Source: a bacterium (GTDB lineage: Bacteria > CAIJMQ01). Taken from it: a DNA stretch of 43,276 nucleotides. The first letter of the stretch is position 1, and every line of letters begins with the position of its first letter. The stretch covers positions 1 through 43,276 of the forward strand of contig JAGLSL010000034.1 in NCBI GenBank assembly GCA_023135785.1, given 5' to 3'. The translations under genes were made by a program, and so were the position numbers. Positions 6,282 to 31,707 of the stretch are shown here, in pieces. The notes under the pieces were generated by a model. It worked only from the letters and a program-made list of their open reading frames with translations. It did not search any database and was not told the DNA's origin.

Positions 6282-6284
6282 TCC

Positions 6285-7912: not shown

Positions 7913-7950
7913 CTTTGTCTTTTTATCCAAAGGCATGGAGTTAAATAGAA

Positions 7951-8511
7951 ATGACAGAAGAAAAATATGTTCCCAGGTTAAAAGATAAGTATAAAGGAGA
8001 AGTTGTCCCATATATGATGGAGAAGTTTAAATATGCTAATTTATTGCAGGTTCCCAAAATAAAGGCGATAGTCATAAATATGGGGGTCGGGGAAGCCAAA
8101 GATGACAAGAAATTCTTAGACGAAGCGTTAAAACTTCTTTCAATAATAAGTGGGCAGAAACCGGTTGTTACCGTAGCTAAAATATCAGTTTCGGGTTTTA
8201 AACTAAGACAAGGAAAACCTATAGGGTGCAAAGTTACTTTAAGGAAAAATAATATGTATGAATTTTTAGATAGGCTTATTTCTTTTGTCCTGCCTCGTAT
8301 AAGAGATTTTAGAGGTGTTAATCCCAACTCTTTTGATGGAAGAGGGAACTATTCTATGGGAATGCAAGAGCAACAAGTTTTTCCAGAAATAGCTCATGAA
8401 CAAATTCCTCATGTTATGGGAATGGATATTTGTTTTGTGACTACGGCAAAAACAAATGAAGAAGGATATGCGTTATTGGAATCTTTTGGAATGCCGTTTA
8501 GAAAAGATTAA
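7951..8511 (+). CDS. rplE: 50S ribosomal protein L5
   Basis: PRLKDKYK..V...[19 protein letters not shown] and [15 protein letters not shown] motifs. Confidence 0.97.
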
Positions 8512-8524
8512 AAATTAAAATAAT

Positions 8525-8710
8525 ATGGCAAGAAAAGCGTTAATAGAAAAGACAAAAAATAAGAATAAATTTAAGGTTCGTTCTTATAATCGTTGTCAAT
8601 TATGTGGAAGACCCAGAGCTTTTATAAGAAAATTTGGTCTTTGCAGGATATGTTTCCGAAATTTAGCTCACAAGGGGCAAGTTCCTGGAGTGACTAAATC
8701 TAGTTGGTAA
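8525..8710 (+). CDS. rpsN: 30S ribosomal protein S14, short zinc-binding (type Z) form
   Basis: 61 aa with CQLCGR-x12-CRIC, ending in W. Confidence 0.96.
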
Positions 8711-8766
8711 ACAACGGACTATATTAATTATTACCTTAATTTTTTAATATGTGTTAAGGAGAAAAT

Positions 8767-9159
8767 ATGAGTATTACTGATCCAATAGCAGATTTTGTGG
8801 TTGCTTTAAAAAATGCTTCTTTGTCACGCAGAGCTGAAATAGTTATTGCTTTTTCTAACATGAAGATGGGTATTTTAGAAGTGCTTAAGAAAGAAGGATT
8901 CATAGAGGATTACGCTAGCAAAAAAGAAGGCAAAAAAAGCAATATAACAATCAAATTAAAATATTTTGGCAGTGAGTCAGCTATCAGAGATGCAAAAAGA
9001 GTAAGCAAAATAAGCAAAAAAGTTTATGTCGGAAAAGACACTATGCCTTTAAGAGAGGGAAACAGAATATGGGTTGTGTCAACATCTAAAGGAATAATGA
9101 CGTCAGATGAATGCAAAACAAAAGGCATTGGTGGAGAAATCTTGTGTTACGTAGAATAG
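8767..9159 (+). CDS. rpsH: 30S ribosomal protein S8
   Basis: MSITDPIADFVVALKNA...VSTSKGIMT..EC...GIGGEILCYV is typical S8. Confidence 0.97.
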   Translation: MSITDPIADFVVALKNASLSRRAEIVIAFSNMKMGILEVLKKEGFIEDYASKKEGKKSNITIKLKYFGSESAIRDAKRVSKISKKVYVGKDTMPLREGNRIWVVSTSKGIMTSDECKTKGIGGEILCYVE

Positions 9160-9170
9160 GAGAATGAATA

Positions 9171-9734
9171 ATGTCACGAATTGGTAAAATGCCAGTTGCT
9201 ATACCTAATAATGTTAAAGTCGAGATTAATCAAAACATTGTTTCGGTTGAAGGTCCAAAGGGCAAATTGTCTGAAAAGTTTTCTTCCCTAATGGATATTA
9301 CAAGGGACAAGGAAGAAATTATTGTCAAACGTTCTTCGGATGAAAAATTCAATCGCGCTCTTCATGGAACTACGCGAGCTCTAATTGCTAATATGATAAA
9401 AGGGGTTTCTGATGGGTTCCAAAAAGAACTGGAGATAATAGGGGTTGGTTATTCTGCCAAGATGGAAGGCAAGAAATTAGTTATGAAACTCGGCTTTTCT
9501 CATCTGGTTGAGTATATGCCGTCGGATATAGTTAAATTGGAAGTGAAAAAAGCAAAAAATTTTGAAGTGATTGTAAGTAGTCCAAACAAGCAGGAAGTAG
9601 GTCAGGCGGCCTGCGAAATTCGTAAGTTTTGTCCACCTAATGCTTATAAAGGTAAGGGAATAAGATATAAAGGGGAATACATAAAATTGAAACCAGGTAA
9701 GACAGCGGCAACAGGGGCGGCTGGCGCAGGATAA
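9171..9734 (+). CDS. rplF: 50S ribosomal protein L6
   Basis: MSRIGKMPV.IP..V.V....N.V.V.GPKG and PPNAYKGKGIRY motifs. Confidence 0.97.
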   Translation: MSRIGKMPVAIPNNVKVEINQNIVSVEGPKGKLSEKFSSLMDITRDKEEIIVKRSSDEKFNRALHGTTRALIANMIKGVSDGFQKELEIIGVGYSAKMEGKKLVMKLGFSHLVEYMPSDIVKLEVKKAKNFEVIVSSPNKQEVGQAACEIRKFCPPNAYKGKGIRYKGEYIKLKPGKTAATGAAGAG

Positions 9735-9738
9735 AAAC

Positions 9739-9757
9739 ACAGAAAACAGACGACAGA
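9739..9757. repeat. 19-mer ACAGAAAACAGACGACAGA, copy 1 (rplF-rplR spacer)
   Basis: Exact 19-nt match to 16847-16865. It is embedded in a CAGA/CGAC word tract (9735-9775) followed by the complementary words TGTCTTCTG and CATCTG. Confidence 0.9.
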
Positions 9758-9804
9758 GAACAGAAAAAACGACTGACATCTGTCTTCTGGCATCTGATAA
9801 TATT

Positions 9805-10170
9805 ATGAGTAGAGAACTTAAAGAAAAACGTATAAAGAGAGAAAGAAGACATAGGAAAACAAGGGCAAAAATACACGGGACTTCCCTATGTCCTCGAATA
9901 TGTGTTTTTAGAAGCAATAAGAATATATATGTTAATATGATAGACGATGAGAACAATAAGGTCATGATGACTTTCTCTTCTCTTTCTAAAGAGAGTAAAG
10001 AGGGGAAAATTAATGGCTCTAATGTTAAGGCTGCTGTTTTTGTCGGAGAATTAGCTGGTAAAAAAGCCATAGAAAAAGGCATTAAAAAAGGCATTTTTGA
10101 CAGGAGCGGATATCGATATCATGGAAGAGTAAAAGCTGTGGCTGAAGGTTTAAAGAAAGCCGGGATATAA
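9805..10170 (+). CDS. rplR: 50S ribosomal protein L18
   Basis: RRHRKTRAKI.GT...PRICVFRSNKNIYV..IDD and GYRYHGRVKA.AEG motifs. Confidence 0.96.
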   Translation: MSRELKEKRIKRERRHRKTRAKIHGTSLCPRICVFRSNKNIYVNMIDDENNKVMMTFSSLSKESKEGKINGSNVKAAVFVGELAGKKAIEKGIKKGIFDRSGYRYHGRVKAVAEGLKKAGI

Positions 10171-10189
10171 ATAGAACAAGCGAGGAATT

Positions 10190-10693
10190 ATGGAACATAC
10201 TAAAGGAAAATTTAGATCAAGAAGTGAACAGGTAGGGTTCAAAGAGAAAGTCGTATATATAAACCGTGTAGGTAAAGTAGCTAAAGGCGGAAGGAAAATA
10301 GCTTTCAGCGCAGTTGTGGTGGTGGGGGATGGTAATGGCAAGGTGGGGTGTGGTTTAGGCAAGGCACCCGAAGTAGCGGAAGCCATAAGAAAAGGGATTA
10401 AAATAGCTACAAAAAATATGGTCGAGATTCCCATGAAAGACAATACAATACCTGCTTCGGTTGTAGGGGAATTTATTGCCTCAAGAGTAGTTCTTAGACC
10501 TGCTTTCAAAGGAACCGGTATCATTGCCGGAGCACCTGCTAGAGCAGTTTTGGAACTTGCCGGCATTAAAGATATTCTTACCAAGTCCTTGGGTTCCAAT
10601 AATCCTCTCAATGTAATAAAAGCGACTTTAAACGGACTGCAAAAGATAAAAGAAGATATAGAACGTTATCAGATGAGGATTGAAAATAAATGA
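10190..10693 (+). CDS. rpsE: 30S ribosomal protein S5
   Basis: VVYINRVGKVAKGGRKIAFSAVVVVGDGNGKVG.GLGKA is typical S5. Confidence 0.97.
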   Translation: MEHTKGKFRSRSEQVGFKEKVVYINRVGKVAKGGRKIAFSAVVVVGDGNGKVGCGLGKAPEVAEAIRKGIKIATKNMVEIPMKDNTIPASVVGEFIASRVVLRPAFKGTGIIAGAPARAVLELAGIKDILTKSLGSNNPLNVIKATLNGLQKIKEDIERYQMRIENK

Positions 10694-11328
10694 AATTACA
10701 TAATTTATTACCTCCTTATGGTGAAAAACATAAAGTAAAAAGATTGGGCAGAGGAAATTCTTCCGGAAGCGGTAATTACAGCGGAAAAGGGATGAAGGGA
10801 CAAGGCTCTCGTAAGGGGCGTGGCACTTATCTTGGTTTTGAAGGCGGTCAAATGCCTTTATACAGAAGACTGCCTAAAAGAGGTTTTACTCCTTTAAACA
10901 AAGAAAGATATCAGGAAGTTAATCTTTGTTCTCTTAATAGTTTGAAAGACGAGAAAGAGATAACGCCGGAAATTTTACGAAAAAAAGGTCTTATCAAAAA
11001 AGTAAACGAAAAAATAAAAATTCTTGGAAAAGGGACGCTTGAACTAACACTTGTCGTAAAAGCCCACAAATTCAGTCGCAAAGCAAAAGAAGAAATAGTT
11101 AAAAAAGGCGGCAAAGCTATAGAGATAGTATCCTATACATCCAAACCCAAGATAGATAAAGAAGAAGTGGAAAGAAACAAAGTAACGGTAAAAGAATCTT
11201 TAGCAGAAAAAGAGCAAAAGACAAAAGGTAAAGAAAAAACAGAGATAGAGCCGAAAATTATAAAAAGGAAGAAATCTTTAAAAAGTGAAGATAAGGCAAA
11301 AACAAAAGGGAAGAAGAAGGACAAATAG
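10690..11328 (+). CDS. rplO: 50S ribosomal protein L15 with about 65-aa Lys/Glu-rich C-terminal extension
   Basis: KRLGRGNSSGSGNYSGKGMKGQGSRKG and MPLYRRLPKRGF motifs. ATGA overlap with rpsE leaves no room for rpmD. Confidence 0.95.
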   Translation: MKLHNLLPPYGEKHKVKRLGRGNSSGSGNYSGKGMKGQGSRKGRGTYLGFEGGQMPLYRRLPKRGFTPLNKERYQEVNLCSLNSLKDEKEITPEILRKKGLIKKVNEKIKILGKGTLELTLVVKAHKFSRKAKEEIVKKGGKAIEIVSYTSKPKIDKEEVERNKVTVKESLAEKEQKTKGKEKTEIEPKIIKRKKSLKSEDKAKTKGKKKDK

Positions 11329-11366
11329 AACCTTTTCATCTGTATCCTTAACATAAAAACTAAAAA

Positions 11367-12695
11367 ATGGCTGTAAATCTTGGTGGATTAAGAGATATTT
11401 TTAAGATTCCGGAATTATCAAGACGGATATTTGCGACTTTAGGTTTTCTTGCTCTTTATAGAATGGGAATACATGTCCCTACTCCTGGAATAAATAGCGC
11501 ATCTTTAGCAGATTTTTTTGAGAAAATGAAGGGAACTCTTTTTGGAATGTGGGATCTATTTGCCGGCGGGGCTTTGAGCCAAGCTTCAGTATTTGCTTTG
11601 GGTATAATGCCCTATATCACCGCTTCCATTATCATTCAGATGTTGGTTCCGGTTGTTCCCTATCTGGAAAAAATTTCAAAAGAAGAAGGCGAAGAAGGAA
11701 GAAGAAAAATAGTGCAGTTTACTCGCTACGGTACTATTCTGATTGCGTTAGTACAGTCTTTGGGGATTGCAAAAGTGCTCGAGATGCCGGGCAATTTTGG
11801 AGGAATTGTTATGGTTGATTCTCCAGGATGGGCGTTTAGGATAATGACCATCATAACAATGACTGCGGGAACTACTTTTATAATGTGGATTGGGGAACAA
11901 ATTTCCGAAAAGGGTATAGGTAATGGTATTTCTTTAATAATTTTCGCGGGTATATTAGCGCGTTCTCCAAGCGATGTCCTTAAGACTCTCACACTTGTAA
12001 AAAACAAGCAAATGGGTATTCCTTTATTGATTTTCGTTGTAATCTTTGCGGTAGCAATAGTTGCAGGGATAGTATTAATAACTCAAGCTCAAAGACGAAT
12101 TCCTGTTCAATACGCAAAAAGAGTTATAGGTAGAAAAATATATGGAGGGCAATCCACTTATGTTCCTTTAAGAGTAAATCAGGCAGGAGTTATTCCCATA
12201 ATATTTGCGGTTTCCATAATGCAGTTCCCTGAAACTATAAGCACATTTTTTCTTCGCGGTACTGAATCTAAATTTACAGAAATTTTATCTCTTTTCTCAT
12301 TAAGAAATCCTTTAGGAATGTTTGTTTATGCGCTTTTAATAATTTTCTTTACATATTTTTATACTGCTATGACTTTTAATCCTAATGATATGGCTGATAA
12401 TATAAAAAAACAGGGCGGATTTGTTCCGGGGATAAAGCCCGGTAGAACTACGGCTGATTATTTTGAACGGATAATGTCAAGAATTGCGCTTCCTGGAGGA
12501 TTGTTTCTTGCAGCGATAGCGTTGCTTCCGATGATTCTTGAACGCAAACTTAGTCTCCCTTTTTATTTTGGAGGAACGTCGTTACTCATTGTTGTAGGTG
12601 TTGCACTGGATACAATGGGACAATTGGAATCACATTTATTGATGCGCCAATACAGTGGATTTATTCAAAAAGGCAAGATGAAGAGTAGATATTAA
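11367..12695 (+). CDS. secY: preprotein translocase subunit SecY
   Basis: 442 aa, about 10 TM segments, with GIMPYITASII and ISEKGIGNGISLIIFAGI motifs. Confidence 0.98.
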   Translation: MAVNLGGLRDIFKIPELSRRIFATLGFLALYRMGIHVPTPGINSASLADFFEKMKGTLFGMWDLFAGGALSQASVFALGIMPYITASIIIQMLVPVVPYLEKISKEEGEEGRRKIVQFTRYGTILIALVQSLGIAKVLEMPGNFGGIVMVDSPGWAFRIMTIITMTAGTTFIMWIGEQISEKGIGNGISLIIFAGILARSPSDVLKTLTLVKNKQMGIPLLIFVVIFAVAIVAGIVLITQAQRRIPVQYAKRVIGRKIYGGQSTYVPLRVNQAGVIPIIFAVSIMQFPETISTFFLRGTESKFTEILSLFSLRNPLGMFVYALLIIFFTYFYTAMTFNPNDMADNIKKQGGFVPGIKPGRTTADYFERIMSRIALPGGLFLAAIALLPMILERKLSLPFYFGGTSLLIVVGVALDTMGQLESHLLMRQYSGFIQKGKMKSRY

Positions 12696-12800
12696 ATAAA
12701 CAATTTAAAATTCAAAACGCAAAGTTTTAAAGGACTATAGAAATTTTTGATTTTTAATATGCAATTTTACTATTTGATATTTAATGTTTGATTTAAAGAT

Positions 12801-13454
12801 ATGAAGATATTAATAATGGGGCCTCCGGGCGCAGGAAAAGGTACGATAGCCGAAATGTTGCAGGAAGATTTTGATATTGTTCATCTTTCAAGCGGAGATG
12901 TTTTAAGAAATGCGATAAAAGCAAATAATCCGCTTGGGATAGAGGCTAAATCGTTTATGGAAAAAGGCGTGCTTGTTCCGGATGAAATAATCATAGAATT
13001 AATGAAAGAAAAAATTAATGCGGATGCTTTTGTATTGGATGGCTTTCCGAGAAATTTAGTGCAGGTCAAAAAACTAGAGGATGCAGGCATAAAAATAGAT
13101 ATAGTGCTGAATTTACGGGTAAATGAGGAAACTGTAATTTCTCGTATTTCAGGTAGGCGTATTTGCGCTCAATGTGGCAAGATTTATCATCTTAAAAATA
13201 TGCCTTCCCAAAAAGAGGGCATATGCGATGTTTGTAATGGGAAACTTTACCAAAGAGAAGATGATAAACCTCAGACGATAAAAGAGCGACTTAATACTTA
13301 TAGGGAGCAGACTGAAGAATTGGTAAAATATTATGACGAAAAAAATATACTAGAAAATATAGATGCTGGTGGAAATAAAGAAGCCACTTATGATAGAATA
13401 ACAGGTTTAGAATGGCTAAAAAAGAGAAAATACAAGTTAAAGGCAGGATTGTAG
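12801..13454 (+). CDS. adk: adenylate kinase (zinc-lid type)
   Basis: P-loop [27 protein letters not shown]. The 3' end overlaps infA by 43 nt. Confidence 0.96.
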
Positions 13455-13633
13455 AATCTTTGCCTAATGCATACTTCAGAGTAGAGCTTGAGAATGGACA
13501 TAAGATTTTGGCCCATATTTCTGGAAAAATGAGAGTGCATTTTATACGAATTTTGACGGGAGACGAAGTTACAGTTGAACTTTCTCCTTATGATTTAACA
13601 AGAGGCAGAATAACATATAGGCACAGTAGATAA
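13412..13633 (+). CDS. infA: translation initiation factor IF-1
   Basis: [63 protein letters not shown] is typical IF-1. Confidence 0.97.
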
Positions 13634-13684
13634 TTTATACTGATATAAAATGATCAGATTGACGAACGAAGTGAGGAGAGGTTC

Positions 13685-13798
13685 ATGAAAGTAAGAGTTT
13701 CAGTTAAAAAAATATGCGGGAAATGTAAACTTATAAGAAGAAGAGGACGTCTTCATATAATTTGTTCTAATCCTGCGCATAAACAAAGGCAGAAATAA
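13685..13798 (+). CDS. rpmJ: 50S ribosomal protein L36 (absent from the ORF track; translated by hand)
   Basis: [37 protein letters not shown] (37 aa, C-x2-C-x12-C-x4-H). RBS GAGGAGAGG upstream. It sits in the canonical infA-rpmJ-rpsM position. Confidence 0.95.
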
Positions 13799-13800
13799 CC

Positions 13801-14208
13801 ATGGCAAGAATTATGGGTGTTGAAATACCGGATGGAAAAAAAAGCAAAATATCGCTCAGGTATATTTATGGAATAGGGCCTGCTAGGGCTATGTTTATAT
13901 TAAGTTCTACAGGCATAGATCCCGACAAAAAAATAAAAGAACTAAGTGGAGAGGAATTAAGTAAAATAGCCGCAGCAATTCAATCTAACTTTAAGGTTGA
14001 AGGGGCATTGAAACAGGAAATCACAGATAACATAAGAGAACTTTCAAGCATAGGAACGTATAGAGGATATAGACATAAAGTGGGATTACCTGTTCGCGGA
14101 CAAAGAACATCTTGCAATGCACGCACAAGAAAAGGCCCAAAGAAGACTGTTGGTGTTTTAAGGAAAAAAGTGAGAGAAAGAATGTCAGGATCAGATAAAA
14201 AGGGATAA
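13801..14208 (+). CDS. rpsM: 30S ribosomal protein S13
   Basis: MARIMGVEIP..K....SL.YIYGIG and YRGYRH..GLPVRGQRT motifs. Confidence 0.97.
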   Translation: MARIMGVEIPDGKKSKISLRYIYGIGPARAMFILSSTGIDPDKKIKELSGEELSKIAAAIQSNFKVEGALKQEITDNIRELSSIGTYRGYRHKVGLPVRGQRTSCNARTRKGPKKTVGVLRKKVRERMSGSDKKG

Positions 14209-14224
14209 CTAAAAAGGTAAAACT

Positions 14225-14785
14225 ATGGCAGATCCAAAACCAGAAAAAGAGAAGAAAGAAAAATTGACCGAAAAGCAGAAAAAAACTGAAGAGAAAAAAA
14301 AGGTTGAGGCAAATCAAAAAGTTGAACAAGCCAAAGATCCTAAAGTTGTTGCTGAAGAAAAACCGGTTGACGAAGGTAAAATAGTCGAAGAGATTAAAAC
14401 GACTATTAGCAAGGGCAAGAAAAAAAGAAAGAATTTAAAGATTTCCAAAGGCGTTGTTCATATAAAATCGACTTTCAACAACACACTGGTAACAATTGCT
14501 GATTCGCAAGGGAATACTATTGTTTCTTCTTCTTCCGGGGCAGTCGGATTTAAAGGCACAAAAAAATCTACCCCTTTTGCGGCTTCACGTGCCGCAGATA
14601 TTGCGGGCAAAAAAGCTTTGACATTTGGCATGAAAGAAGTAAGTGTTTATATTAAAGGACCTGGGGCAGGAAGAGAAGCGGCTATAAGGTCTTTGGAATC
14701 TGCAGGGCTTACGATAACACTTATAAGAGATGTAACCCCTATCCCGCATAATGGATGCAGACCGCCTAAGAGGAGAAGAGTGTAA
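14225..14785 (+). CDS. rpsK: 30S ribosomal protein S11 with about 57-aa Lys/Glu-rich N-terminal extension
   Basis: The core [12 protein letters not shown]...[12 protein letters not shown]...[16 protein letters not shown] begins near residue 76. No in-frame ATG lies closer to the core. Confidence 0.9.
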
Positions 14786-14786
14786 A

Positions 14787-15428
14787 ATGAGATACAGTGG
14801 ACCTAGTTGTAAATTATGCAAGAAGGCAGAAGAAAAGTTATTTTTAAAAGGATCCAAATGCAATACAGCTACATGTATTATTGCACGCAAAGCAGAAAAA
14901 TCCTATAAAAAAAGTAGAACCAGAAGAACTACTTCCCGAAGAAGAAGGACTAAACTGTCGGATTATGGAATCAGGCTTGCGGAAAAACAGAAACTAAGAA
15001 GAATTTACGGTCTTTCGGAAAAAAGTTTTAGAATAATTTTTGATGTCGCTTCCAAGAAAAAAGGTAATACTGGTGAAGTATTCTTGACCCTTTTGGAAAG
15101 ACGGCTTGATAATGTTATTTTTAAAATGGGTTTTGCAAATTCAAGAGCGCATGCAAGGCAGCTTGTAGGTCATAAATTTTTCATTGTTGGCAAAAGGAAG
15201 GTTAACATTCCTTCATATCTTGTAAAAGAGGGAGAAGTAATTAAATTAGATTCTGCCAAACAAGAAAAATTAAAGAAGACTATATCAACTGAAGCAGAGA
15301 TGGGAGTTCCTCTATGGCTTTCCTCCGATAGAAAAAAATTAGAAGGCAAGGTATTAAGGGATCCCAAACGAGAAGAAATTTCTGTTCCTGTGGAGGAGAA
15401 TTTGATTGTCGAATTTTATTCTCGTTAA
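14787..15428 (+). CDS. rpsD: 30S ribosomal protein S4
   Basis: Start moved to ATG 14787 (MRYSGPSCKLCKK..., the canonical S4 N-terminus with a 4-Cys knuckle), one nt after the rpsK stop. The track start at 14751 would overlap rpsK. Confidence 0.95.
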   Translation: MRYSGPSCKLCKKAEEKLFLKGSKCNTATCIIARKAEKSYKKSRTRRTTSRRRRTKLSDYGIRLAEKQKLRRIYGLSEKSFRIIFDVASKKKGNTGEVFLTLLERRLDNVIFKMGFANSRAHARQLVGHKFFIVGKRKVNIPSYLVKEGEVIKLDSAKQEKLKKTISTEAEMGVPLWLSSDRKKLEGKVLRDPKREEISVPVEENLIVEFYSR

Positions 15429-15486
15429 TCTATTATTTCATTGATCAAAAGATTTTTATAACGGTTTAAAAAGGGGATAGAAAGCT

Positions 15487-16476
15487 ATGGAAGAAAATAA
15501 CAAGATTAAGTTTCTAATTATGCCGGAAAAATTAGAATGGGAAACATTGACCGAATCGTATGGAAAAGTTTTCGTATATTCTCTTGAAAGAGGATTTGCT
15601 ACAACGCTGGGTAATTCTTTAAGGCGAATGCTTCTGTTTTGTATTCCGGGTGCAGCTATAACTTCTGTCAACATAGAAGGTGTCAAACACGAATTTTCAA
15701 GCATACCGGGTGTTTTAGAAGATGTCCCCCAACTTATTGCTAACCTTAAACAGACAATAATAAAAATTCATGATGAAGAAGGCGGTAAAAAAGAACTTTT
15801 ACTTGATGTTCAAGGCGAAGGAGAAGTAAGAGCCGGAGATGTAAAGACTGACAAAGATGTGGAAATACTCAATCCACATCTTCATATTGCTACATTGAGT
15901 AAAGGCAAAAGTTTAAAGATAAGTATTCAAGTTGAAAGAGGTAAGAGTTACATACAAGCTAAAAAAATGCCTGTTGATGCAGATGTGCCGAAAGGAACTA
16001 TAGCTGTCGATGCGCTGTTTTCTCCTGTCCAAAAAGTAGATTTTAAAGTGGAAAACACGCGTGTAGGAGATAGAATAGACTATGAAAAACTAGCCTTGGA
16101 AATCAGGACAAACGGAACGATAACTCCAGATAAAGCATTAGAGTATGCAACGGAAGTTTTGATTAAGCACTACGAATTCATTTTGAATGTTTTAGAGAAA
16201 AAAGATGTCAAAGAAGAGATAGAAGAAGAAATTCTAAAAGAAACTAAAAAAGAAGATAAAAAAGGATTGTTATCTAGAAATCTTTCTGAGTTTGATCTCT
16301 CAGTTCGTTCAATGAATTGTTTGAAAGTTGGGAACCTAAAGACTTTGAACGATTTAGTGAAAAGAAATGAAGAAGAATTGATGCAGATTAAGAATTTTGG
16401 CAAAAAATCTCTTGACGAATTGGGTGATTTGGTTGCTAAACTTGGGCTTTCGTTTAAACAAACAAAAGAAAAATAA
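15487..16476 (+). CDS. rpoA: DNA-directed RNA polymerase alpha subunit
   Basis: 329 aa. NTD GFATTLGNSLRR.LL..IPG.AIT, CTD LSVRSMNCLK...L.DLV. A Glu/Lys-rich linker joins them. Confidence 0.97.
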   Translation: MEENNKIKFLIMPEKLEWETLTESYGKVFVYSLERGFATTLGNSLRRMLLFCIPGAAITSVNIEGVKHEFSSIPGVLEDVPQLIANLKQTIIKIHDEEGGKKELLLDVQGEGEVRAGDVKTDKDVEILNPHLHIATLSKGKSLKISIQVERGKSYIQAKKMPVDADVPKGTIAVDALFSPVQKVDFKVENTRVGDRIDYEKLALEIRTNGTITPDKALEYATEVLIKHYEFILNVLEKKDVKEEIEEEILKETKKEDKKGLLSRNLSEFDLSVRSMNCLKVGNLKTLNDLVKRNEEELMQIKNFGKKSLDELGDLVAKLGLSFKQTKEK

Positions 16477-16491
16477 CACTAATCACAAAAA

Positions 16492-16878
16492 ATGAGACAT
16501 ATTAATAAAAAAAGAAAACTTGGGATGAAGGCGTCTCGAAGAAAATCTGTTTTAAAAAATTTATTCACCTCGCTTCTTGCTTACGGTGAAGTAAAAACGA
16601 CAGAAATAAGAGGCAAAGAATTAGTGAGAGTTGGCAATAGTCTTATAGAAAAAGCGAAAAAGAGTGATTTAGCTTCCCGCAGAAAAGTTTCATCGCATAT
16701 TACCAAAGACACGGTTTCCATAAACTTTTTTCAAGAAATCTTGCCAAAATTGGCTAATCGTACAGGCGGGTATCTTAGATTGTTTAGAGTGGGTATTCGA
16801 AAAGGTGATGGAGCTAAAGTAGTAATGGTGCAGCTGATTACAGACGACAGAAAACAGACGACAGAAGACAGACGATAA
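16492..16878 (+). CDS. rplQ: 50S ribosomal protein L17
   Basis: MRHINKKRKLG...RK..L.NL...L......TT..R.KEL motif. Last gene of the alpha operon. The last ~11 codons (DDRKQTTEDRR) are encoded by the CAGACGACAGA word repeat. Confidence 0.95.
   Translation: MRHINKKRKLGMKASRRKSVLKNLFTSLLAYGEVKTTEIRGKELVRVGNSLIEKAKKSDLASRRKVSSHITKDTVSINFFQEILPKLANRTGGYLRLFRVGIRKGDGAKVVMVQLITDDRKQTTEDRR
16847..16865. repeat. 19-mer ACAGAAAACAGACGACAGA, copy 2 (inside the rplQ 3' end)
   Basis: Exact match to 9739-9757. The word tract continues to about 16910 and is followed by complementary TCTG words and TTTTT (16907-16937). Confidence 0.9.
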
Positions 16879-25566: not shown

Positions 25567-25803
25567 ATGAAATATACGCAATATTTTCTCCATACAAGAC
25601 AAAGGCCTGACAGAGCACGCATAAAAGATGAATGGATTGATTTTGCTATTAAGAATCCTGTGAAAACAGAAATACAATCCGATAGGCGAATAAGAAAATG
25701 GGCAAAAATTGAAGACGAAGGAAAATATTTGCGTGTTATATTACTTGAAGACGGAGAAACAATTCACAATGCTTTCTTTGATAGAGAATTTAAGGAGGTG
25801 TAA
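25567..25803 (+). CDS. small DUF4258-like protein (putative toxin partner of DUF2283)
   Basis: 78 aa, 4 nt upstream of a DUF2283-like gene. The family call rests on the pairing and general resemblance and is uncertain. Confidence 0.4.
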   Translation: MKYTQYFLHTRQRPDRARIKDEWIDFAIKNPVKTEIQSDRRIRKWAKIEDEGKYLRVILLEDGETIHNAFFDREFKEV

Positions 25804-25806
25804 ACT

Positions 25807-26016
25807 ATGAAAATAAAATATTTTAATGATACTGATACCGCTTTAGTGGAATTTACAGAAAACTTGGTAAAAAATACCAGGGAAATATCGGAAAATGTAT
25901 CTATTGATATTGATGAAAAAGGCAATCTTGTTAGCATGACTATTGAACACGCAAAAAAGACAGCACATTTGCCCGATATCTATTACCAACAAATAGAAGA
26001 AAAAGTTGCTGTGTAA
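25807..26016 (+). CDS. DUF2283 family protein (putative antitoxin-like)
   Basis: MKIKYFNDTDTALVEF......SIDIDEKGNLVSMTIEHA matches the DUF2283 pattern (Y-D-x-D-x-L, then d-G-x-l-v-g-i-e-i). Confidence 0.6.
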   Translation: MKIKYFNDTDTALVEFTENLVKNTREISENVSIDIDEKGNLVSMTIEHAKKTAHLPDIYYQQIEEKVAV

Positions 26017-26132
26017 CAACTATCGTTGAACCTACTTATCACTACGCTGTCCTTCCCTCTTTATTTCAAATTACTGTATTTGACAGAGAAAAATTGGGAG
26101 AGATAAAATCGGTCAAAATTTAGAAAATTTTC

Positions 26133-26161
26133 TTGACATTCTGAAACTTATGTCGTACTAT
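26133..26161 (+). promoter_or_regulatory. sigma70-like promoter of the riboswitch leader
   Basis: TTGACA (26133-26138), 17-nt spacer, TACTAT (26156-26161). Confidence 0.6.
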
Positions 26162-26184
26162 GCATTTTTAATTTAGTTTAAACG

Positions 26185-26353
26185 TATTAGGTTCCTGAAG
26201 AATCTTCAGGACGAAAAGGGAAACCCGTGCAAATCGGGTGCAGTCCCGCTACTGTGAAAGGGGACGAAATCCACGAAAAGCCACTGTTCCAATAGTCGGA
26301 ATGGGAAGGTGTGGAGAGTAGGAAGATCCTATAGCCAGAAGACCTGCCTAATA
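26185..26353 (+). promoter_or_regulatory. cobalamin (B12) riboswitch aptamer
   Basis: P1 TATTAGG/CCTAATA. Conserved core AAAAGGGAAACCCGTGCAAATCGGGTGCAGTCCCGCTACTGT, GCCACTG...GGAATGGGAAGG, and B12 box AGCCAGAAGACCTGCC (26333-26348). Confidence 0.9.
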
Positions 26354-26416
26354 TGATAGAAGCTATTTGGTTAAATAGTTTTTATCCTCGCGGAAGGATG
26401 AAGTAAACCAGGGTGC

Positions 26417-26457
26417 AATCCTTAAGTTCTGAAAAGAGAGCTTAAGGATTTTTTTTA
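26417..26457 (+). terminator. intrinsic terminator (riboswitch expression platform)
   Basis: Perfect 10-bp stem AATCCTTAAG/CTTAAGGATT with a 14-nt loop, followed by TTTTTTTT. Upstream GGAAGGAT could form the competing anti-terminator. Confidence 0.8.
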
Positions 26458-26488
26458 TTTCCAGGGCTCAGGAAGGAAAGCCGGTCGA

Positions 26489-27268
26489 ATGTTAAAAAGC
26501 GGGAAGAGAAAAGCTTTTACTCTCGTAGAGTTGTTGGTAGTAATGACCATAATAGCGGTTTTATCTTCCCTGTTGTTGCCGGCATTAATCAAGACCAGGG
26601 AAATGGCCAGGCGGGTGGTTTGCCTTTCTAATCTTCGCCAGATACACATTGCGGCAAAGGTATATGCGAATAGTTACGATGGTTATTATCCGCCGGCTTA
26701 TTGGTTTGATCCTCCCCCTTTGTCTTTTTATGATCGCCCCCGCTTCTGCACAACTTATGCCTGGGACTTTACCACTATAACGGATACAGTCACAGGCGAG
26801 AAACAAGTTATCCCCGGCATATTATGGCAGGAGGCAGGAGATATGAAAATTCAGCAATGTCCCTCGTTTACAGGTGCGGCTAATTGGCTTAGTGATCCCT
26901 ATACCGGCTATAACTATAATACTAGCTATATTGGACATGGCTATCTTGAAAGCATTCCGGAGCCGGCGCGGACTACTGATGTAAAGTCGCCTTCCACTTG
27001 CGCCCTGTTTGGGGATGGCGAATATGGGGGCGGAGCAAACAAATTTATGCGGGCGCCCTGGCCTAATCCGGGTGATGCCAACTTTTCTAATGCCGGCAGA
27101 TACGCCGGAACACAGGGTTACCGGCATATGGGTTATACCAACGTGGTTTACTGTGACGGACATGCGGAGTCCGTACGTGAATGTTATTCTGAAACCAGTA
27201 AAAAGGAGAAGGTGGCCCCCGGAACCGGTTTTCTTTCGCCTGATAATAGTGCTTATGATTTGAAATGA
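26489..27268 (+). CDS. prepilin-type N-terminal cleavage/methylation domain protein of the DUF1559 / H-X9-DG family
   Basis: [26 protein letters not shown] leader/helix, [15 protein letters not shown] segment, and H-X9-DG motif [12 protein letters not shown] near the C-terminus. 259 aa. Confidence 0.85.
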
Positions 27269-27300
27269 ACCGGGAAAAGTGAAAAAAGGAGAATAAGCTA

Positions 27301-29469
27301 ATGCAAACTTACGCTTATGGTTTTCCCAGATTGGGGAAAAAGAGGGAATATAAGAAAATTATAGAAAGTTTCTGGAGTAAAGAAATCAAGGAAGGAGAGC
27401 TTCGGGAAAGCATTGGCAGCCTGGAAAAGGAAAGACTGACAACTTATGAAAGATATGTAGATAAGTTTCCGGCAGGGGAGATGACCTTTTACGATCACAT
27501 GCTGGATACAGCTTTAATGCTGGGTTTGTATAAGTGCAAAGATTTAGATGCATATTACAATTTGTGCAGGGGCAAGGATGCCCTGGGATTAAGCAAATGG
27601 TTTAATACTAATTATCATTATCTTATTCCCCGGTTCAGCCAATCATTTAGCCCCTCCGAATTTAAGGCAGTTTGGAATAAACCCCGGGAGGCCGGGCAAT
27701 TATACCGGAAAGGTATTCCTTATTTAATAGGACCTTTCACTTTTTTAAAATTGTCCAGGGGAATTAATCCGGAGAGGTTAGGGGAATATCTTTTACCTTT
27801 GGCGGATGCCTATGTTGAATTGATTAAAGATTTTCCTGAAGTGCATATAGATGAACCTGCCTTTGCAATGGAGCTTTCCAGAAAAGAAATTGAGTGGATT
27901 AAGCAGATTTACTACCGGCTGGGTTCTCAAAATCCTCACATCAACCTCTTTACTTATTATGACTCCGTAGATTTTTTGCAGGATCTATATGAGTTACCCG
28001 TAAAGGCAATAGGGCTGGATTTTGTCAATGGCAAAGAAAACTTAGCAAATATTAGAAAGTATGGTTTTCCGAAAGAGAAGACCTTGATTGCCGGCATAGT
28101 AAACGGTAGAAATGTCTGGAGAGTTAATATTAGCAAAAGGGTGGAATTTTTAAGAGAGCTATCCCGCTATGCAGAAGATTTGGTTATTTCCAATGCCGCG
28201 CCGCTTTACCATTTACCAATAACAATAGAAACCGAGCAATTAGATGAGAGGTTATTAAAGAAGATTGCTTTTGCTGAAGAGAGACTGGCTGAGTTAAAGC
28301 TAATTGCTCAAGTCTATGAAGGCAAGAAGCAAGAAATAAAAGATAAGGGTGAAATTGCGGGCTTTGGCGCAAATCCCAAAGTTCAGGAAAGAATTAAAAA
28401 TCTAAAAGACGAGGATTTTAAAAAGGCTGTTTTTTATGATGAGCGGATTAAAAAGCAAAAGAAGATTTTAGCTCTTCCTCTTTTTCCTACCACTACCATA
28501 GGCAGTTTTCCCCAAACTCAAGAAGTCAGGAAAAAAAGAGCGGATTTTAAATCAGGTAAAATTCCAGAAAGGGAATATACGACTTTTATTAAAGAAGAGA
28601 TTACTAAGTTGATAATACTTCAGGAAAATTTAGGTTTGGATGTATTAGTGCATGGAGAATTTGAAAGGACAGATATGGTGGAATTTTTTGCCCAGGAATT
28701 GGACGGGATTGCCACCACCAAAAATGGATGGATTATTTCTTACGGCACCAGGGGCTATAGGCCGCCGATAATTTTTGGTGATATTTCACGACCAAAGCCT
28801 ATGACTCTTAATGAGATTAGTTTTGCCCAGAGTCTGACCGAGAGACCTGTCAAGGGGATGTTAACAGGATCGGTTACTATAATTGCCTGGAGTTTTGTCA
28901 GGGACGATATCCCAATTTCTGAGGTTGCTTATCAGCTGTCTCTATGTTTGCAGGATGAGATAAGAGATTACGAGAAAGCAGGTATCAAGATTGCCCAGAT
29001 TGATGAACCGGCCTTTAGAGAAAAAGCGCCGCTTAAAAAAAGAAACAGGGATAGTTATTTTGATTGGGCAGTAAAATCATTTAATTTAGCTTCTCGGGCA
29101 AAACCTGAAACACAAATCCATACCCATATGTGCTATTCGGAATTCGGAGAGATTATTGAATATATTCTCAAAATGGATTTTGATGTGATTACTATTGAGG
29201 CCTCAAGAAGTAAAGGCGATATTATAAAGTATTTCCAGAATGTAAATTTTAAAAGGCAGATAGGGCTGGGTGTCTGGGATATCCACTCACCGGCCATTCC
29301 GGACGTTAAAGATATGACAAAGATTGTAGAGAGAGCTCTGGGAGTGTTCTCAGAAGAAAACTTCTGGATAAATCCGGACTGTGGATTAAAAACAAGAGAT
29401 TGGCCGGAAACAAAAGCTGCGTTAAAAAATTTAGTGGCGGTAGCTAAGAAAACAAGGAAGTCATCCTAA
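27301..29469 (+). CDS. metE: cobalamin-independent methionine synthase
   Basis: 722 aa, two-domain MetE. N-terminal GFPRLGKKREYKK, C-terminal IGSFPQT, IQIDEPA, HMCYSEF and DCGLKTR zinc-site motifs. Confidence 0.96.
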   Translation: MQTYAYGFPRLGKKREYKKIIESFWSKEIKEGELRESIGSLEKERLTTYERYVDKFPAGEMTFYDHMLDTALMLGLYKCKDLDAYYNLCRGKDALGLSKWFNTNYHYLIPRFSQSFSPSEFKAVWNKPREAGQLYRKGIPYLIGPFTFLKLSRGINPERLGEYLLPLADAYVELIKDFPEVHIDEPAFAMELSRKEIEWIKQIYYRLGSQNPHINLFTYYDSVDFLQDLYELPVKAIGLDFVNGKENLANIRKYGFPKEKTLIAGIVNGRNVWRVNISKRVEFLRELSRYAEDLVISNAAPLYHLPITIETEQLDERLLKKIAFAEERLAELKLIAQVYEGKKQEIKDKGEIAGFGANPKVQERIKNLKDEDFKKAVFYDERIKKQKKILALPLFPTTTIGSFPQTQEVRKKRADFKSGKIPEREYTTFIKEEITKLIILQENLGLDVLVHGEFERTDMVEFFAQELDGIATTKNGWIISYGTRGYRPPIIFGDISRPKPMTLNEISFAQSLTERPVKGMLTGSVTIIAWSFVRDDIPISEVAYQLSLCLQDEIRDYEKAGIKIAQIDEPAFREKAPLKKRNRDSYFDWAVKSFNLASRAKPETQIHTHMCYSEFGEIIEYILKMDFDVITIEASRSKGDIIKYFQNVNFKRQIGLGVWDIHSPAIPDVKDMTKIVERALGVFSEENFWINPDCGLKTRDWPETKAALKNLVAVAKKTRKSS

Positions 29470-29495
29470 AGTGTTTTGAGGGAGTTTAAGAATAT

Positions 29496-29801
29496 ATGCA
29501 AACCGGTAAAATGGATAGCATGCAATTTGAATTTTTTCTTGATAGTATTTATGAAAGCCTTTCTCAGGAGGACTTCTCCGTTACCGAGCACAATCTTAAG
29601 ACAGCTCTTCAGTTTGGCTATAGCGTAGATGACCTTTTTGAAATAGTCTTATGCGATTTCATGAAAAGGATTAAGAATGACTTTTCTACTGTGTTAATGA
29701 AATTAGATGCCTTAAATAATACTGTGAGAATATTAGAATATTTAGGAGGTTTACATAAAAACATAGAAGGAGGAACTAAAAGATGCCCCGGGCTGAATTA
29801 A
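29496..29801 (+). CDS. hypothetical 101-aa helical protein between metE and thyX
   Basis: ORF with a possible RBS (GAGGGAG). It overlaps the thyX start by 19 nt. No secure family assignment. Confidence 0.45.
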   Translation: MQTGKMDSMQFEFFLDSIYESLSQEDFSVTEHNLKTALQFGYSVDDLFEIVLCDFMKRIKNDFSTVLMKLDALNNTVRILEYLGGLHKNIEGGTKRCPGLN

Positions 29802-30529
29802 ACGTAAAACTTTTGGATGTAACGCAGGACGCAGTTTCTATTATCTACGCTGCCTGTAGGCAATGCTATTCTGCTAAATTTGTCGTTGATATCCTAAAAG
29901 AGCAGAAAGGAAATTTGGAAAAGCAGATAGTGTTTGTTAAAAAAGTTGTTGAATCCGGGCACGAAAGCCCATTGGAACACGTAAAGTTCACTTTTGCCAT
30001 AGAGGGTGTATCACGGGCTTTAACGCATCAGCTTGTCCGGCACCGGATGGCTTCTTATTCCCAGCAAAGTCAAAGATATGTGATAGAAAAAGATTTTAAT
30101 TACATAATCCCGGCCTCAATTGAGAGAGATGAAACCCTGAAAAGTGAATTTATAGGAGTTATGGGAGAGATTCAGCAAAGTTACCACCGGATACTAAGAA
30201 AGCTGGAAGAAAATGGTATTGTAGGGGAGAAAGCAAACCAGGATGTCCGATTTATTTTACCTCAGGCGGTAGAGACAAAGATTGTGGTAACAATGAACTG
30301 CAGGGAGCTTCTGCATTTCTTTAAACAAAGATGCTGTGTCAGGGCGCAATGGGAAATCAGAAACCTGGCAAACAAAATGCTGGAAATGTGCCGCAGCCAT
30401 CTCCCGGCGGTATTTTCCCATGCTGGAGCGAAATGCGAAAGCTTAGGTTATTGCCCTGAAGGTGAGAAATTTACCTGCGGTAAGTATCCTCGGAAAGAGG
30501 AAGCCATTAAAAGAAAAAAACTGCAATGA
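29783..30529 (+). CDS. thyX: flavin-dependent thymidylate synthase
   Basis: ThyX motif [14 protein letters not shown], plus [21 protein letters not shown]. Confidence 0.95.
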
Positions 30530-30963
30530 CTTTGTTCCAAAAAAGGCTCAAAAAAGGAAGAGCTTTTACTCTCGTAGAGTTGTTGGTAGTAATGACCATA
30601 ATAGCGGTTTTGTCTTCCCTAATGCTGCCGGCATTAATCAGGGCCAGGGAAATGGCCAGGCAGGCTAACTGTATATCCAATTTACGGCAAATTCATTTGG
30701 CGGTGCAGATGTATGTTCAGGATTGGGAAGGCTGGTATCCGCCGGTCGCCGCCGATATTCTCGGCAAACAGCTTCATCGCTGGCATGGAACCAGGTCGAC
30801 AATGGGGCAGCCTTTTGACCCTGCCGGGGGACCGATATATCCATATCTCCGGACTGGTGAAATAAAAATGTGCCCCTCATTTGTAGAGTATCTTCAAAAA
30901 GGCGGTGGCGCCTTTGAGTTAGGTTGCGGCGGTTATGGTTATAACGGTCAGTATGTAAAATAA
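30526..30963 (+). pseudogene. truncated DUF1559 pseudopilin paralog (lacks the H-X9-DG C-terminal half)
   Basis: The N-terminus is near-identical to 26489..27268 ([41 protein letters not shown]). ATGA-coupled to thyX. The ORF stops at 145 aa, and its stop codon (30961-30963) overlaps the first two bases of the left 27-bp inverted repeat of the RAYT element (30962). Confidence 0.75.
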
Positions 30964-31707
30964 TCGGGGGACACAATACCTATTTCTCTTGACAAATGTA
31001 GCTTGAACAGTTAAAACCTATCTATGTCAAGGATAGCAAGAGTAGTTGTTCCTGAATATCCTCATCATATAATTCAAAGAGGCAACCGCAGGCAAAAGGT
31101 ATTCTTTAATGAAGGTGACTATGAAGAATATCTTAGATTACTAAATAACTATTCGCTTCGGTTTAAAGTAGATATTCTATCCTACTGTTTAATGCCCAAC
31201 CATATACATCTTATAGCAACTCCTCATGAAGATGGAAGCTTAGCCCAAGCCATAGGTGAAACTCACCGTAATTACACAAGATTCATTAATTTTAGGGAAA
31301 AATGGCGGGGGTATCTATGGCAAGGAAGATTCTCGTCATATGTTCTTGATGAAGGCTACTTATTAGCTGCAGTCCGCTATATACTTTTAAATCCTGTGAA
31401 AGCAGGAATAGTAAAGAAACCATGGGACTATAAGTGGTCAAGCACACAGCATCATATGAAGATTAAGAACAACCCTTTGATAAAAGATACTCTCTTGAGA
31501 GAACTCATAGAAAATTGGCAAGATTTTCTTAGTATAACGGCAGACGATGATGATAACATTAAGTTGTTACAATTACATGAAAGAACAGGACGGCCATTAG
31601 GAGATAATACATTTATAGAAAAACTGGAATCTCTTCTTAAGATAAGGCTTAAAAAGAAGAGAGCCGGGCGCAGGAAGAAGGAGAAATAGGTATTGTGTCC
31701 CCCGATT
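30962..31707 (+). mobile_element. 746-bp element: HUH/Y1 transposase gene bounded by 27-bp perfect inverted repeats (RAYT/REP-like)
   Basis: AATCGGGGGACACAATACCTATTTCTC (30962-30988) is the exact reverse complement of 31681-31707. The right repeat overlaps the transposase stop codon. Confidence 0.85.
31024..31689 (+). CDS. REP-associated tyrosine transposase-like (IS200/Y1_Tnp family, HUH endonuclease)
   Basis: HUH motif MPNHIHLI, catalytic-Tyr helix AAVRYILLNPVKAGIV, and the N-terminal PHHIIQRGNRRQ typical of this family. 221 aa. Confidence 0.85.
   Translation: MSRIARVVVPEYPHHIIQRGNRRQKVFFNEGDYEEYLRLLNNYSLRFKVDILSYCLMPNHIHLIATPHEDGSLAQAIGETHRNYTRFINFREKWRGYLWQGRFSSYVLDEGYLLAAVRYILLNPVKAGIVKKPWDYKWSSTQHHMKIKNNPLIKDTLLRELIENWQDFLSITADDDDNIKLLQLHERTGRPLGDNTFIEKLESLLKIRLKKKRAGRRKKEK

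Follow-up and report, generated by a model that had tools for sequence, protein, structure and literature searches.

The stretch of DNA analysed here (43,276 nucleotides, in the following called the window) is of Omnitrophota origin, to judge by the 90%-identity clusters of its UvrB and EF-Tu, and carries a cobalamin riboswitch, a gene for a 259-aa pilin-like protein and metE, in this order and on the same strand. The Rfam covariance model RF00174 matches positions 26172-26365 (+ strand) with 119.1 bits (E 1.9e-29), the gathering score being 31.5 bits, and the alignment comprises model positions 1-189, i.e. the full, not truncated, model. The B12 box AGCCAGAAGACCTGCC is located at 26333-26348, where the consensus of the model reads AGCCAGGAGACCuGCC. 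A complete B12 aptamer had been proposed for 26185-26353 in the first-pass annotation, with a cmscan search against RF00174 as the check, and this search confirms it with a shift of a few bases. The promoter named in the same annotation, TTGACA-17-TACTAT, is present at 26133-26161 (+ strand, 10 of 12 consensus matches) and would plausibly put the transcription start just 5' of the aptamer; an alternative site, TTGACA-18-TAAAAT, lies at 26080-26109 (+ strand, 11 of 12 matches). However, since the number of promoter-like sites in the region is not above the expectation from shuffled sequence (11 versus 13.1), the promoter is plausible by its position but without statistical support.

An intrinsic terminator, the putative OFF element, was identified at 26417-26458 (+ strand) by terminator scan and folding. 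It is composed of a 14-pair stem at 26417-26450 with a 6-nt loop and the subsequent U-tract TTTTTTTATTT, folds at -18.3 kcal/mol in isolation and appears in the MFE as well as in the centroid fold of the whole leader, which bears out the hairpin with U-tract formerly placed at 26417-26457. Thermodynamic folding further suggests a relay region of the expression platform at 26355-26403 (+ strand) with two mutually exclusive hairpins. Which of them is predicted depends on whether the 3' arm of the terminator is included in the fold. The hairpin at 26355-26386 has bases in common with the 3' strand of P1, and the one at 26380-26403 would sequester the antiterminator strand GAAGGAU (26393-26399). 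Binding of a corrinoid would thus close P1, hairpin 26380-26403 would keep the antiterminator strand paired, and transcription would halt at the terminator (26417-26458). When B12 is scarce, hairpin 26355-26386 would free GAAGGAU for pairing with the 5' arm of the terminator, and RNA polymerase could go on to transcribe the pilin-like gene, metE and perhaps also thyX.

The pilin-like gene (ORF 26489-27268, + strand) is preceded by the Shine-Dalgarno sequence AGGAAGGA at 26470-26477. A spacer of 32 nt (27269-27300, + strand), which carries the metE Shine-Dalgarno sequence AAGGAG, separates it from metE (27301-29469, + strand), whose product is a cobalamin-independent methionine synthase of 722 aa with both domains at full length (Meth_synt_1, E 1.1e-82; Meth_synt_2, E 4.6e-135). 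The terminator scan found no terminator-like site in the spacer, whose folding energy is only -1.4 kcal/mol. Coordinates, scan and fold therefore agree with the earlier statement that metE begins 32 nt past the stop codon of the pilin-like gene with no hairpin between them, and the sequence is fully consistent with the suggested unit of riboswitch, terminator, DUF1559 gene and metE. From the sequence, we infer that both genes are co-transcribed. No terminator-like site was found on the + strand from 26450 to 30033, and it is possible, albeit uncertain, that an ORF of 101 aa without family match (29496-29801, + strand) and thyX, with which this ORF overlaps (29783-30529, + strand; Thy1, E 2.8e-68), form the distal part of the same transcript.

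The window resembles the RF00174 leaders of metE in its full-length aptamer, its B12 box, the intrinsic terminator as predicted expression platform and the downstream position of metE. MetE is the B12-independent isozyme and would restore methionine synthesis without the vitamin, in line with the classical logic of an OFF switch. In contrast to these leaders, the first cistron behind the switch is the pilin-like gene, which precedes metE, and thyX is possibly co-transcribed.

In the 259-aa protein, a 9-aa leader (MLKSGKRKA) precedes FTLVE and a hydrophobic alpha1 helix; the globular domain behind them contains HX9DG and the motifs that are invariant in the subfamily. Both N_methyl (30.8 bits, cut-off 21.2) and TIGR02532 (27.5, cut-off 16.3) recognize the protein, and its N-terminus has the properties of a class III signal, namely a short basic leader, A at position -1, F at +1, E at +5 and the hydrophobic alpha1 helix; Glu+5 (E14) is invariant across the aligned subfamily. 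DUF1559/SBP_bac_10 (PF07596) was detected with 31.2 bits (gathering cut-off 23.3) in an alignment that covers residues 36-82 only, corresponding to model positions 3-48 of 268. The H-X9-DG motif was found by inspection (H213 to D223-G224), and in the subfamily alignment H213, C222 and D223 never vary and G224 hardly does; the NCBIfam H-X9-DG model gave no match to the protein at E ≤ 0.01. The prepilin leader with its helix, the CxSNLRQI segment and the H-X9-DG motif, by which the protein had originally been classified, could thus all be verified. The DUF1559/SBP_bac_10 "prepilin-type processing-associated H-X9-DG" proteins of Planctomycetota and Verrucomicrobiota likewise combine a class III signal, CxSNLRQ after alpha1, HX9DG near the C-terminus and a Pfam score above threshold. 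What differs from the bulk of DUF1559 is the rest of the globular domain, which together with its motifs is specific to the subfamily. A profile search of the PDB with the subfamily alignment matched only the alpha1 helix of pilins and pseudopilins and found nothing for the globular domain. No known B12-binding motif was recognized in the protein. The AF2 model of the protein (30-sequence alignment) is poor (pLDDT 52) and unusable for function, and a Foldseek search with it yielded no match at E ≤ 0.001.

The closest relatives of the 259-aa protein, which come from different phyla, share 55-64% identity over 97-100% of its length. Counted as cluster representatives, the family gives approximately 317,000 matches at E ≤ 1e-3 and approximately 174,000 at E ≤ 1e-10, and only 226 of the 317,259 matching representatives reach E ≤ 1e-30. 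Here, we define the B12-linked DUF1559 subfamily by full-length similarity together with the subfamily-invariant motifs. Its members belong mostly to Planctomycetota and Verrucomicrobiota, and the window protein is 57-64% identical to 29 other aligned members and has all 59 invariant columns. In contrast to the bulk of DUF1559 with its fast-diverging multiple paralogs, the subfamily is nearly single-copy, conserved across phyla and linked to a riboswitch.

This linkage was examined in 80 genome loci of Planctomycetota and Verrucomicrobiota that encode subfamily orthologs. RF00174 is present upstream and on the same strand in 67 of them, and all 68 riboswitch matches on both strands of the 539 kb covered are upstream and in the same orientation, with none downstream and none antisense. 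In 12 of the 13 loci without a match, the upstream region is shorter than 2.6 kb and cut by the contig end; the other, Limisphaera sp. VF-2 (L021), has no riboswitch in the 3.5 kb upstream of the gene, even at E ≤ 1. A survey for B12 elements in front of DUF1559 genes in other genomes had been set as a refutation test, and they are clearly present, but the connection of DUF1559 to B12 holds for one narrow subfamily and not for DUF1559 genes in general. To judge by gene context, genes of the subfamily regularly belong to the B12 regulon, both in Planctomycetota and Verrucomicrobiota and in the Omnitrophota genome studied here. The window itself is an exception among the loci, since its pilin-like gene lies directly behind the switch and is joined to metE. 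A switch directly upstream of the pilin-like gene with no partner between them occurs in the window and in one further locus (L048) only, and metE is not adjacent in the 67 loci with a riboswitch.

It could be argued that the pilin-like gene is a mere passenger, which came to lie behind a metE riboswitch and ahead of metE and is under B12 control only by accident and to no functional effect. Its GC content of 47% exceeds that of the window (37%), and 3-4 kb downstream there are a truncated second DUF1559 paralog of 145 aa (30526-30963, + strand; N_methyl and DUF1559) and, 3' of the point where this paralog stops at aa 145, an IS200-like transposase gene (31024-31689). The truncated paralog is of the generic DUF1559 type and outside the B12-linked subfamily. 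Over its first 109 nt it has 92.7% identity (blastn) with the equivalent segment of the gene behind the riboswitch. The GC contrast, the truncated paralog, the transposase and the common 5' segment suggest a local rearrangement, and the pilin-like gene may be a recent import whose regulation is not yet shaped by this host. However, an association with the riboswitch in 67 of 80 ortholog loci from unrelated genomes, away from metE, is beyond chance placement. We therefore reject the passenger reading, which is close to refuted.

Between the switch and the pilin-like gene, 74 of the 80 loci contain one or two genes for secreted proteins with PEP-CTERM or dockerin-like tails, and the median distance from the partner stop codon to the matched pilin-like start is approximately 65 nt. 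Profile searches with the two partner modules, A and B, detected nothing except the PEP-CTERM tail. For module A, a confident AF2 model was obtained (pLDDT 84), and in a Foldseek search against the PDB its best 18 matches were beta-domains of transcobalamin and intrinsic factor or the bacterial homologue 3u7z, with TM scores of 0.67-0.68 over the beta-domain and a probability of 1.00. According to this model, module A has the transcobalamin beta-domain fold, i.e. a fold of the cobalamin-binder type (DUF4430-type; PDB 5np4, 2pmv, 3u7z). The likeness to DUF4430 appears at the level of the fold only, and Pfam scans of 15 module A members gave no DUF4430 match at E ≤ 10. Module A differs from the eukaryotic binders in having a PEP-CTERM anchor and no alpha-domain, and it must be kept in mind that the transcobalamin-type fold belongs to a neighbor gene in related loci and not to any gene of the window. 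In four loci (L008, L021, L051 and L077), genes for a Peripla_BP_2 protein (BtuF-type) and an ABC ATPase directly follow the pilin-like gene. A tblastn search of the window with the partner modules and the BtuF-like protein found nothing (best E of the partners 0.28).

The pilin-like gene adjoins these secreted partners in what is apparently an operon, nearly always as the last gene, and this would also fit a dedicated structural pseudopilin that exports or displays modules A and B via a T2SS or type IV pilus-like machine, makes no contact with the vitamin and is B12-regulated only through its cargo. With GspG and the type IV pilins, the 259-aa protein shares the N-terminal leader, FTLxE, the hydrophobic alpha1 helix, which is matched by solved pilins and pseudopilins, and a similar overall size. 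However, it reaches only 26.7 bits with the GspG equivalog model TIGR01710 (cut-off 88.85), in an alignment limited to residues 9-60, its globular domain has no sequence-detectable solved relative, and no genes for a prepilin peptidase or for pilus or T2SS assembly (gsp, pil) are present in the window. What speaks against the structural reading, besides the low GspG score, is that the PEP-CTERM or dockerin-like tails of the partners indicate other sorting routes, that the gene is kept directly behind the riboswitch without partners in the window and in L048, and that the globular domain, with its 59 invariant columns across phyla, is far more conserved than would be expected of a purely structural subunit. 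Overall, we regard a solely structural role as rather unlikely.

We favor, with moderate confidence, the reading that the leader acts as an OFF cobalamin riboswitch by terminating transcription and that the 259-aa protein is a B12-repressed, pilin-anchored part of a system for corrinoid capture. Since a B12 switch precedes nearly every ortholog examined, usually with a protein of a B12-binding fold encoded between them, the pilin-like protein is probably part of a so far undescribed B12-scavenging system. A scavenging role had been offered as an example in the first-pass annotation and gains support from the secreted partners, the transcobalamin-beta fold and the BtuF-like genes in some loci. 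In such a system, a prepilin peptidase would process the 259-aa protein, the alpha1 helix would anchor it in the inner membrane or in a short pseudopilus, and the globular domain would join in the capture or the hand-over of corrinoids in the envelope. The protein would serve either as a corrinoid binder in its own right or as a docking site for the transcobalamin-beta-like and module B surface proteins, and this step would lie upstream of a BtuF-type ABC importer. In the window, the system is best read as stripped down to the pilin-like gene, which is joined to metE. As the window contains neither a partner nor a BtuF-type gene, and the pilin-like gene lies beside an enzyme gene, this gene could serve another role here than in other organisms. 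It also counts against a capture function that B12 riboswitch regulons include genes not related to transport.

Omnitrophota are regarded as host-associated nanobacteria, and for the window, with its pilin-type leader and helix and without transport partners, one could also assume an adhesin or contact pilin that is induced by B12 starvation and serves attachment to B12-producing neighbors or hosts, with no binding of the vitamin. We consider this improbable. The subfamily is found mostly in Planctomycetota and Verrucomicrobiota, beside a transcobalamin-beta-like protein and sometimes BtuF and ABC genes, and with this neighborhood the capture of a small molecule fits better than cell contact. 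Furthermore, adhesins usually diversify, whereas the domain of the subfamily is almost invariant.

The favored capture reading has counterparts in known systems. The loci encoding BtuG, BtuH and BtuJ are riboswitch-controlled, too. These three are surface-exposed, B12-binding accessory proteins of B12 uptake loci in Bacteroidetes (bioRxiv 10.1101/2025.07.01.662609). Like them, the pilin-like protein and its partners would represent lineage-specific envelope proteins that are encoded in uptake loci beside a core transporter and serve the capture or storage of corrinoids. However, BtuG, BtuH and BtuJ are lipoproteins working with the TonB-dependent BtuB, whereas the anchors here are of the pilin or PEP-CTERM type, the cassette lacks btuB and the sequences are not similar. 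As to the proposed mode of action, there is a parallel to the bindosome of Sulfolobus, in which sugar-binding proteins carry class III (pilin-type) signal peptides (PMC3047682). In both cases a protein for solute acquisition would be anchored or assembled in the envelope by means of a type IV pilin-like signal and feed an ABC importer; the bindosome differs in being archaeal, in binding sugars and in having no riboswitch.

A more far-reaching model, which we put forward only tentatively and regard as doubtful, is a so far unrecognized, riboswitch-controlled machine of the PVC group and Omnitrophota for acquiring corrinoids. The pilin-anchored DUF1559 subfamily, the transcobalamin-beta-like PEP-CTERM protein and a third secreted module would together constitute a "bindosome" or pseudopilus that captures B12 outside the cell or in the enlarged periplasm and passes it on to an ABC importer of the BtuF type. 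If this were true, pilin-anchored capture of other nutrients could, by extension, be the task of the DUF1559 paralogs, of which a planctomycete genome has hundreds.

In Planctomycetota and Verrucomicrobiota, few protein families are as large as DUF1559 with its prepilin-like relatives, and to our knowledge no function has been assigned to DUF1559. In the literature searched, which includes only a minority of the subscription journals, we found no description of a link between DUF1559 or prepilin-type proteins and a cobalamin riboswitch. Taken as a physiological label, the riboswitch implies that this subfamily is made when B12 is scarce, and together with the transcobalamin-like neighbor and the ABC genes it yields a hypothesis that is specific and testable, the first of this kind for any DUF1559 protein. 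The evidence points to a route of B12 acquisition that is not built around the known BtuB and BtuG. Since B12 is traded among the members of microbial communities, its acquisition by the abundant Planctomycetota, Verrucomicrobiota and Omnitrophota matters for models of auxotrophy and cross-feeding.

Some cluster representatives of the subfamily are 700-800 aa in length and were considered as true fusions of partner and pilin-like protein. They turned out to be in-frame read-through ORFs, in which the PEP-CTERM tail of the partner runs on into the leader of the pilin-like protein and which we take only as a sign of a tight coupling of both genes.

The DUF1559-related pilin-like protein encoded ahead of metE belongs to a narrow subfamily that stands at the core of a riboswitch-controlled cassette, and the protein encoded first in this cassette has, as modelled, a bona fide cobalamin-binder fold. 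We scanned one genome per GTDB species, which gave at least 490 relatives, and examined the 80 best-scoring loci. In 67 of these 80 best loci, a cobalamin riboswitch is located upstream of the pilin-like gene on the same strand (Rfam, gathering thresholds). All 68 riboswitch matches detected on both strands of 539 kb are upstream and co-oriented, with none downstream and none antisense. In twelve of the 13 loci without a match, the sequence available upstream is shorter than 2.6 kb, and in eight of these twelve the partner gene described below reaches the contig end. Limisphaera sp. VF-2 alone departs clearly from this pattern: no riboswitch was detected there even at E ≤ 1, and a Peripla_BP_2 gene follows the pilin-like gene. 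The pairing of a B12 element with a DUF1559 gene, which the first-pass annotation had proposed from this stretch and wanted judged by its occurrence elsewhere, therefore recurs in other genomes.

The distance from riboswitch to pilin-like gene in the related loci is usually 0.8-3.4 kb (median 1975 nt), and a single locus (L048, 166 nt) resembles the window in this respect. One Planctomycetales genome possesses tandem cobalamin aptamers ahead of the cassette (locus L031, 749-945 and 1111-1307; 87 and 106 bits). PVC-type cassettes were also present at six loci from MAGs labelled Bacillota, Bifidobacteriaceae, Bifidobacterium, Baltobacteraceae or Streptosporangiaceae (L026, L038, L052, L062, L066, L078). 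MAG taxonomy labels are at times wrong, and these cassettes most likely reside on mis-binned contigs rather than in the labelled phyla.

The aptamer of the window matches RF00174, the Rfam cobalamin riboswitch, over the whole model length at 26172-26365 on the plus strand (119.1 bits at a gathering score of 31.5, E = 1.9e-29), and it is the sole riboswitch that Rfam detects in the 43 kb. The B12 box AGCCAGAAGACCTGCC lies within it (26333-26348, plus strand). The proposed hairpin with U-tract proved to be a 14-pair hairpin (26417-26450) followed by TTTTTTTATTT, and no other site in the scanned 5.7 kb resembles a terminator as clearly. The hairpin is found in both the MFE and the centroid fold of the leader and alone reaches -18.3 kcal/mol. 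The claim of a promoter could be upheld only in part: the sigma-70-like site at 26133-26161 is present, but such sites are not enriched compared to shuffled sequence. A second one (26080-26109) is also located ahead of the aptamer. From 26133-26161, transcription could plausibly start a few bases 5' of the aptamer.

Folding the leader with versus without the 3' arm of the terminator resulted in two mutually exclusive states. In the first, a hairpin at 26355-26386 would form and GAAGGAU (26393-26399) would pair with the 5' arm of the terminator (26418-26424), while the second would combine a hairpin at 26380-26403 with the full terminator. Since the 5' arm of hairpin 26355-26386 overlaps the 3' strand of P1, a ligand-stabilised P1 should favour the terminator state. 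On thermodynamic prediction, the leader probably follows the usual OFF logic.

The first ORF behind the switch is the pilin-like gene (26489-27268, plus strand; 259 aa), which is preceded by a Shine-Dalgarno sequence. Its product starts with a short basic leader, FTLVE and a hydrophobic helix, and its scores for N_methyl and DUF1559/SBP_bac_10 (Pfam) and for the prepilin N-terminal domain (NCBIfam) all exceed the respective thresholds. All three motifs that had been named (prepilin leader with helix, DUF1559 segment and H-X9-DG) are present in the translated ORF. As had been described, metE (27301-29469, plus strand) starts 32 nt after the stop codon of this gene; the spacer contains no terminator and is practically unstructured (-1.4 kcal/mol). 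The metE product possesses both Meth_synt domains and the gene has its own AAGGAG. With all listed elements present at the locus, the original observation is confirmed. The metE gene is a classical target of B12 repression and its control by riboswitches is textbook knowledge.

No terminator-like site was predicted from the riboswitch terminator to the interior of thyX, so that thyX may share the metE transcript. Co-transcription of this flavin-dependent thymidylate synthase gene with metE may place two folate-consuming enzymes under B12 control. Within 29496-30529, metE is followed by a 101-aa ORF without a family match, which extends across the start of thyX.

Searched against 5.8 billion proteins, the pilin-like protein had thousands of matches. 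The best 119 non-self matches span approximately 97-100% of the query with 55-64% identity; these proteins measure about 248 aa and all originate from Planctomycetota and Verrucomicrobiota; an alignment of 30 subfamily members contains 59 invariant columns. When 1.84 billion cluster representatives were searched exhaustively with an HMM, 317,259 of them matched at E ≤ 1e-3 and 173,661 still did so at E ≤ 1e-10. Just 226 representatives remain at E ≤ 1e-30, so that the subfamily is sharply delimited and makes up roughly 0.1% of a huge family. Within the pilin-like protein, the Pfam model of DUF1559 covers only residues 36-82, and the remaining globular domain is specific to the subfamily.

All-against-all clustering of ORFs revealed one partner family in 74 of the 80 loci, always upstream of the pilin-like gene and co-oriented with it. 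The family is encoded by two genes (module A, approximately 185 aa, and module B, approximately 330 aa) or, in Verrucomicrobiota, by one gene of 700-800 aa, and a median of about 65 nt separates the partner stop codon from the matched start of the pilin-like gene. Both modules possess signal peptides and PEP-CTERM or dockerin-like tails; they matched no further Pfam family, and their profiles matched no solved structure by sequence. A presumed likeness of module A to the transcobalamin beta-domain was then tested. The AF2 model of module A (29 homologs; pLDDT 84, pTM 0.75) was compared with the PDB by Foldseek, and all of the top 18 matches are transcobalamin or intrinsic factor, the isolated beta-domain of transcobalamin or a bacterial homologue (3u7z). 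The isolated beta-domain with and without cobalamin (5np4, 5no0) gave TM-scores of 0.67-0.68 normalised to the target at a Foldseek probability of 1.00, and matches after these 18 had a probability of 0.6 or below.

Downstream of the pilin-like gene, several loci contain genes for a BtuF-type periplasmic binding protein and an ABC ATPase, and other loci contain apparently unrelated genes. In a Limisphaerales locus (L083), the cassette is preceded by a divergent TonB-dependent receptor gene (3022-5085, minus strand), and the gene behind the pilin-like gene encodes a NikR-like regulator (8856-9287), which hints at a connection with a larger neighbourhood for the uptake of metals or corrinoids. 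In four database cluster representatives of 589-771 aa (P0188, P0191, P0187, P0199), a single ORF runs from module B through a PEP-CTERM or Arg-rich tail in frame into the pilin leader; these may represent genuine fusions or result from the loss of stop codons or from errors in assembly.

The simplest reading of this context is that the cassette is a corrinoid-capture system with the pilin-like protein as a membrane- or pseudopilus-anchored component. Candidate roles of the latter are vitamin binding, docking of surface binders or aid to their display. Its AF2 model is poor (pLDDT 52), and beyond the alpha1 helix a fold search with this model and sequence searches returned no match. In the archaeal bindosome, sugar-binding proteins carry pilin-type signals (PMC3047682), which makes it a mechanistic precedent but no relative of the cassette. 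Neither partner nor BtuF homologs were found in the window, where the cassette has shrunk to the pilin-like gene alone, joined to metE. A full-text literature search, with most subscription journals outside its scope, returned no article that connects cobalamin riboswitches or the uptake of B12 with DUF1559 or prepilin-like proteins. What we rate as new is a putative B12-regulated acquisition locus with new components; for the pilin-like protein, we infer function from context throughout.

The window contains a second DUF1559-type gene (30526-30963), the ATG of which overlaps the thyX stop codon (ATGA), so that it looks translationally coupled to thyX. It stops after 145 aa and is directly followed by an IS200-like Y1 transposase gene (31024-31689; PF01797, E = 7e-14); no C-terminal remainder of the gene was found further downstream. 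The 5' 109 nt of the two DUF1559 genes, encoding leader and alpha1 helix (26504-26612 and 30554-30661), are 92.7% identical in DNA and the remainder is unrelated, which suggests gene conversion or a recent swap of the pilin N-terminal module between paralogs. Both genes have a GC content of 47% (GC3 0.46-0.49) compared to 37% for the window, and the other measured protein-coding genes have GC3 values of 0.27-0.42 (thyX 0.42, metE 0.38). The GC excess of the pilin-like gene hints at import from a higher-GC lineage, and both genes may have been acquired horizontally from a higher-GC PVC lineage.

Just 5' of the promoter (25567-26016), a 78-aa ORF without a family match is followed after 4 nt by a gene for a 69-aa DUF2283 protein, a layout that resembles toxin-antitoxin pairs. 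At 90% identity, the UvrB protein of the window clusters with proteins that carry the annotation Candidatus Omnitrophota, and the EF-Tu cluster comprises Omnitrophota proteins and one assigned to Ratteibacteria. Within 1-16500, three tRNA genes (125-206, 311-381, 473-545) precede the EF-Tu gene and short co-oriented ORFs follow it with the look of ribosomal-protein operons; EF-Tu alone was confirmed, by cluster names. This ordinary housekeeping context shows that the window is chromosomal.
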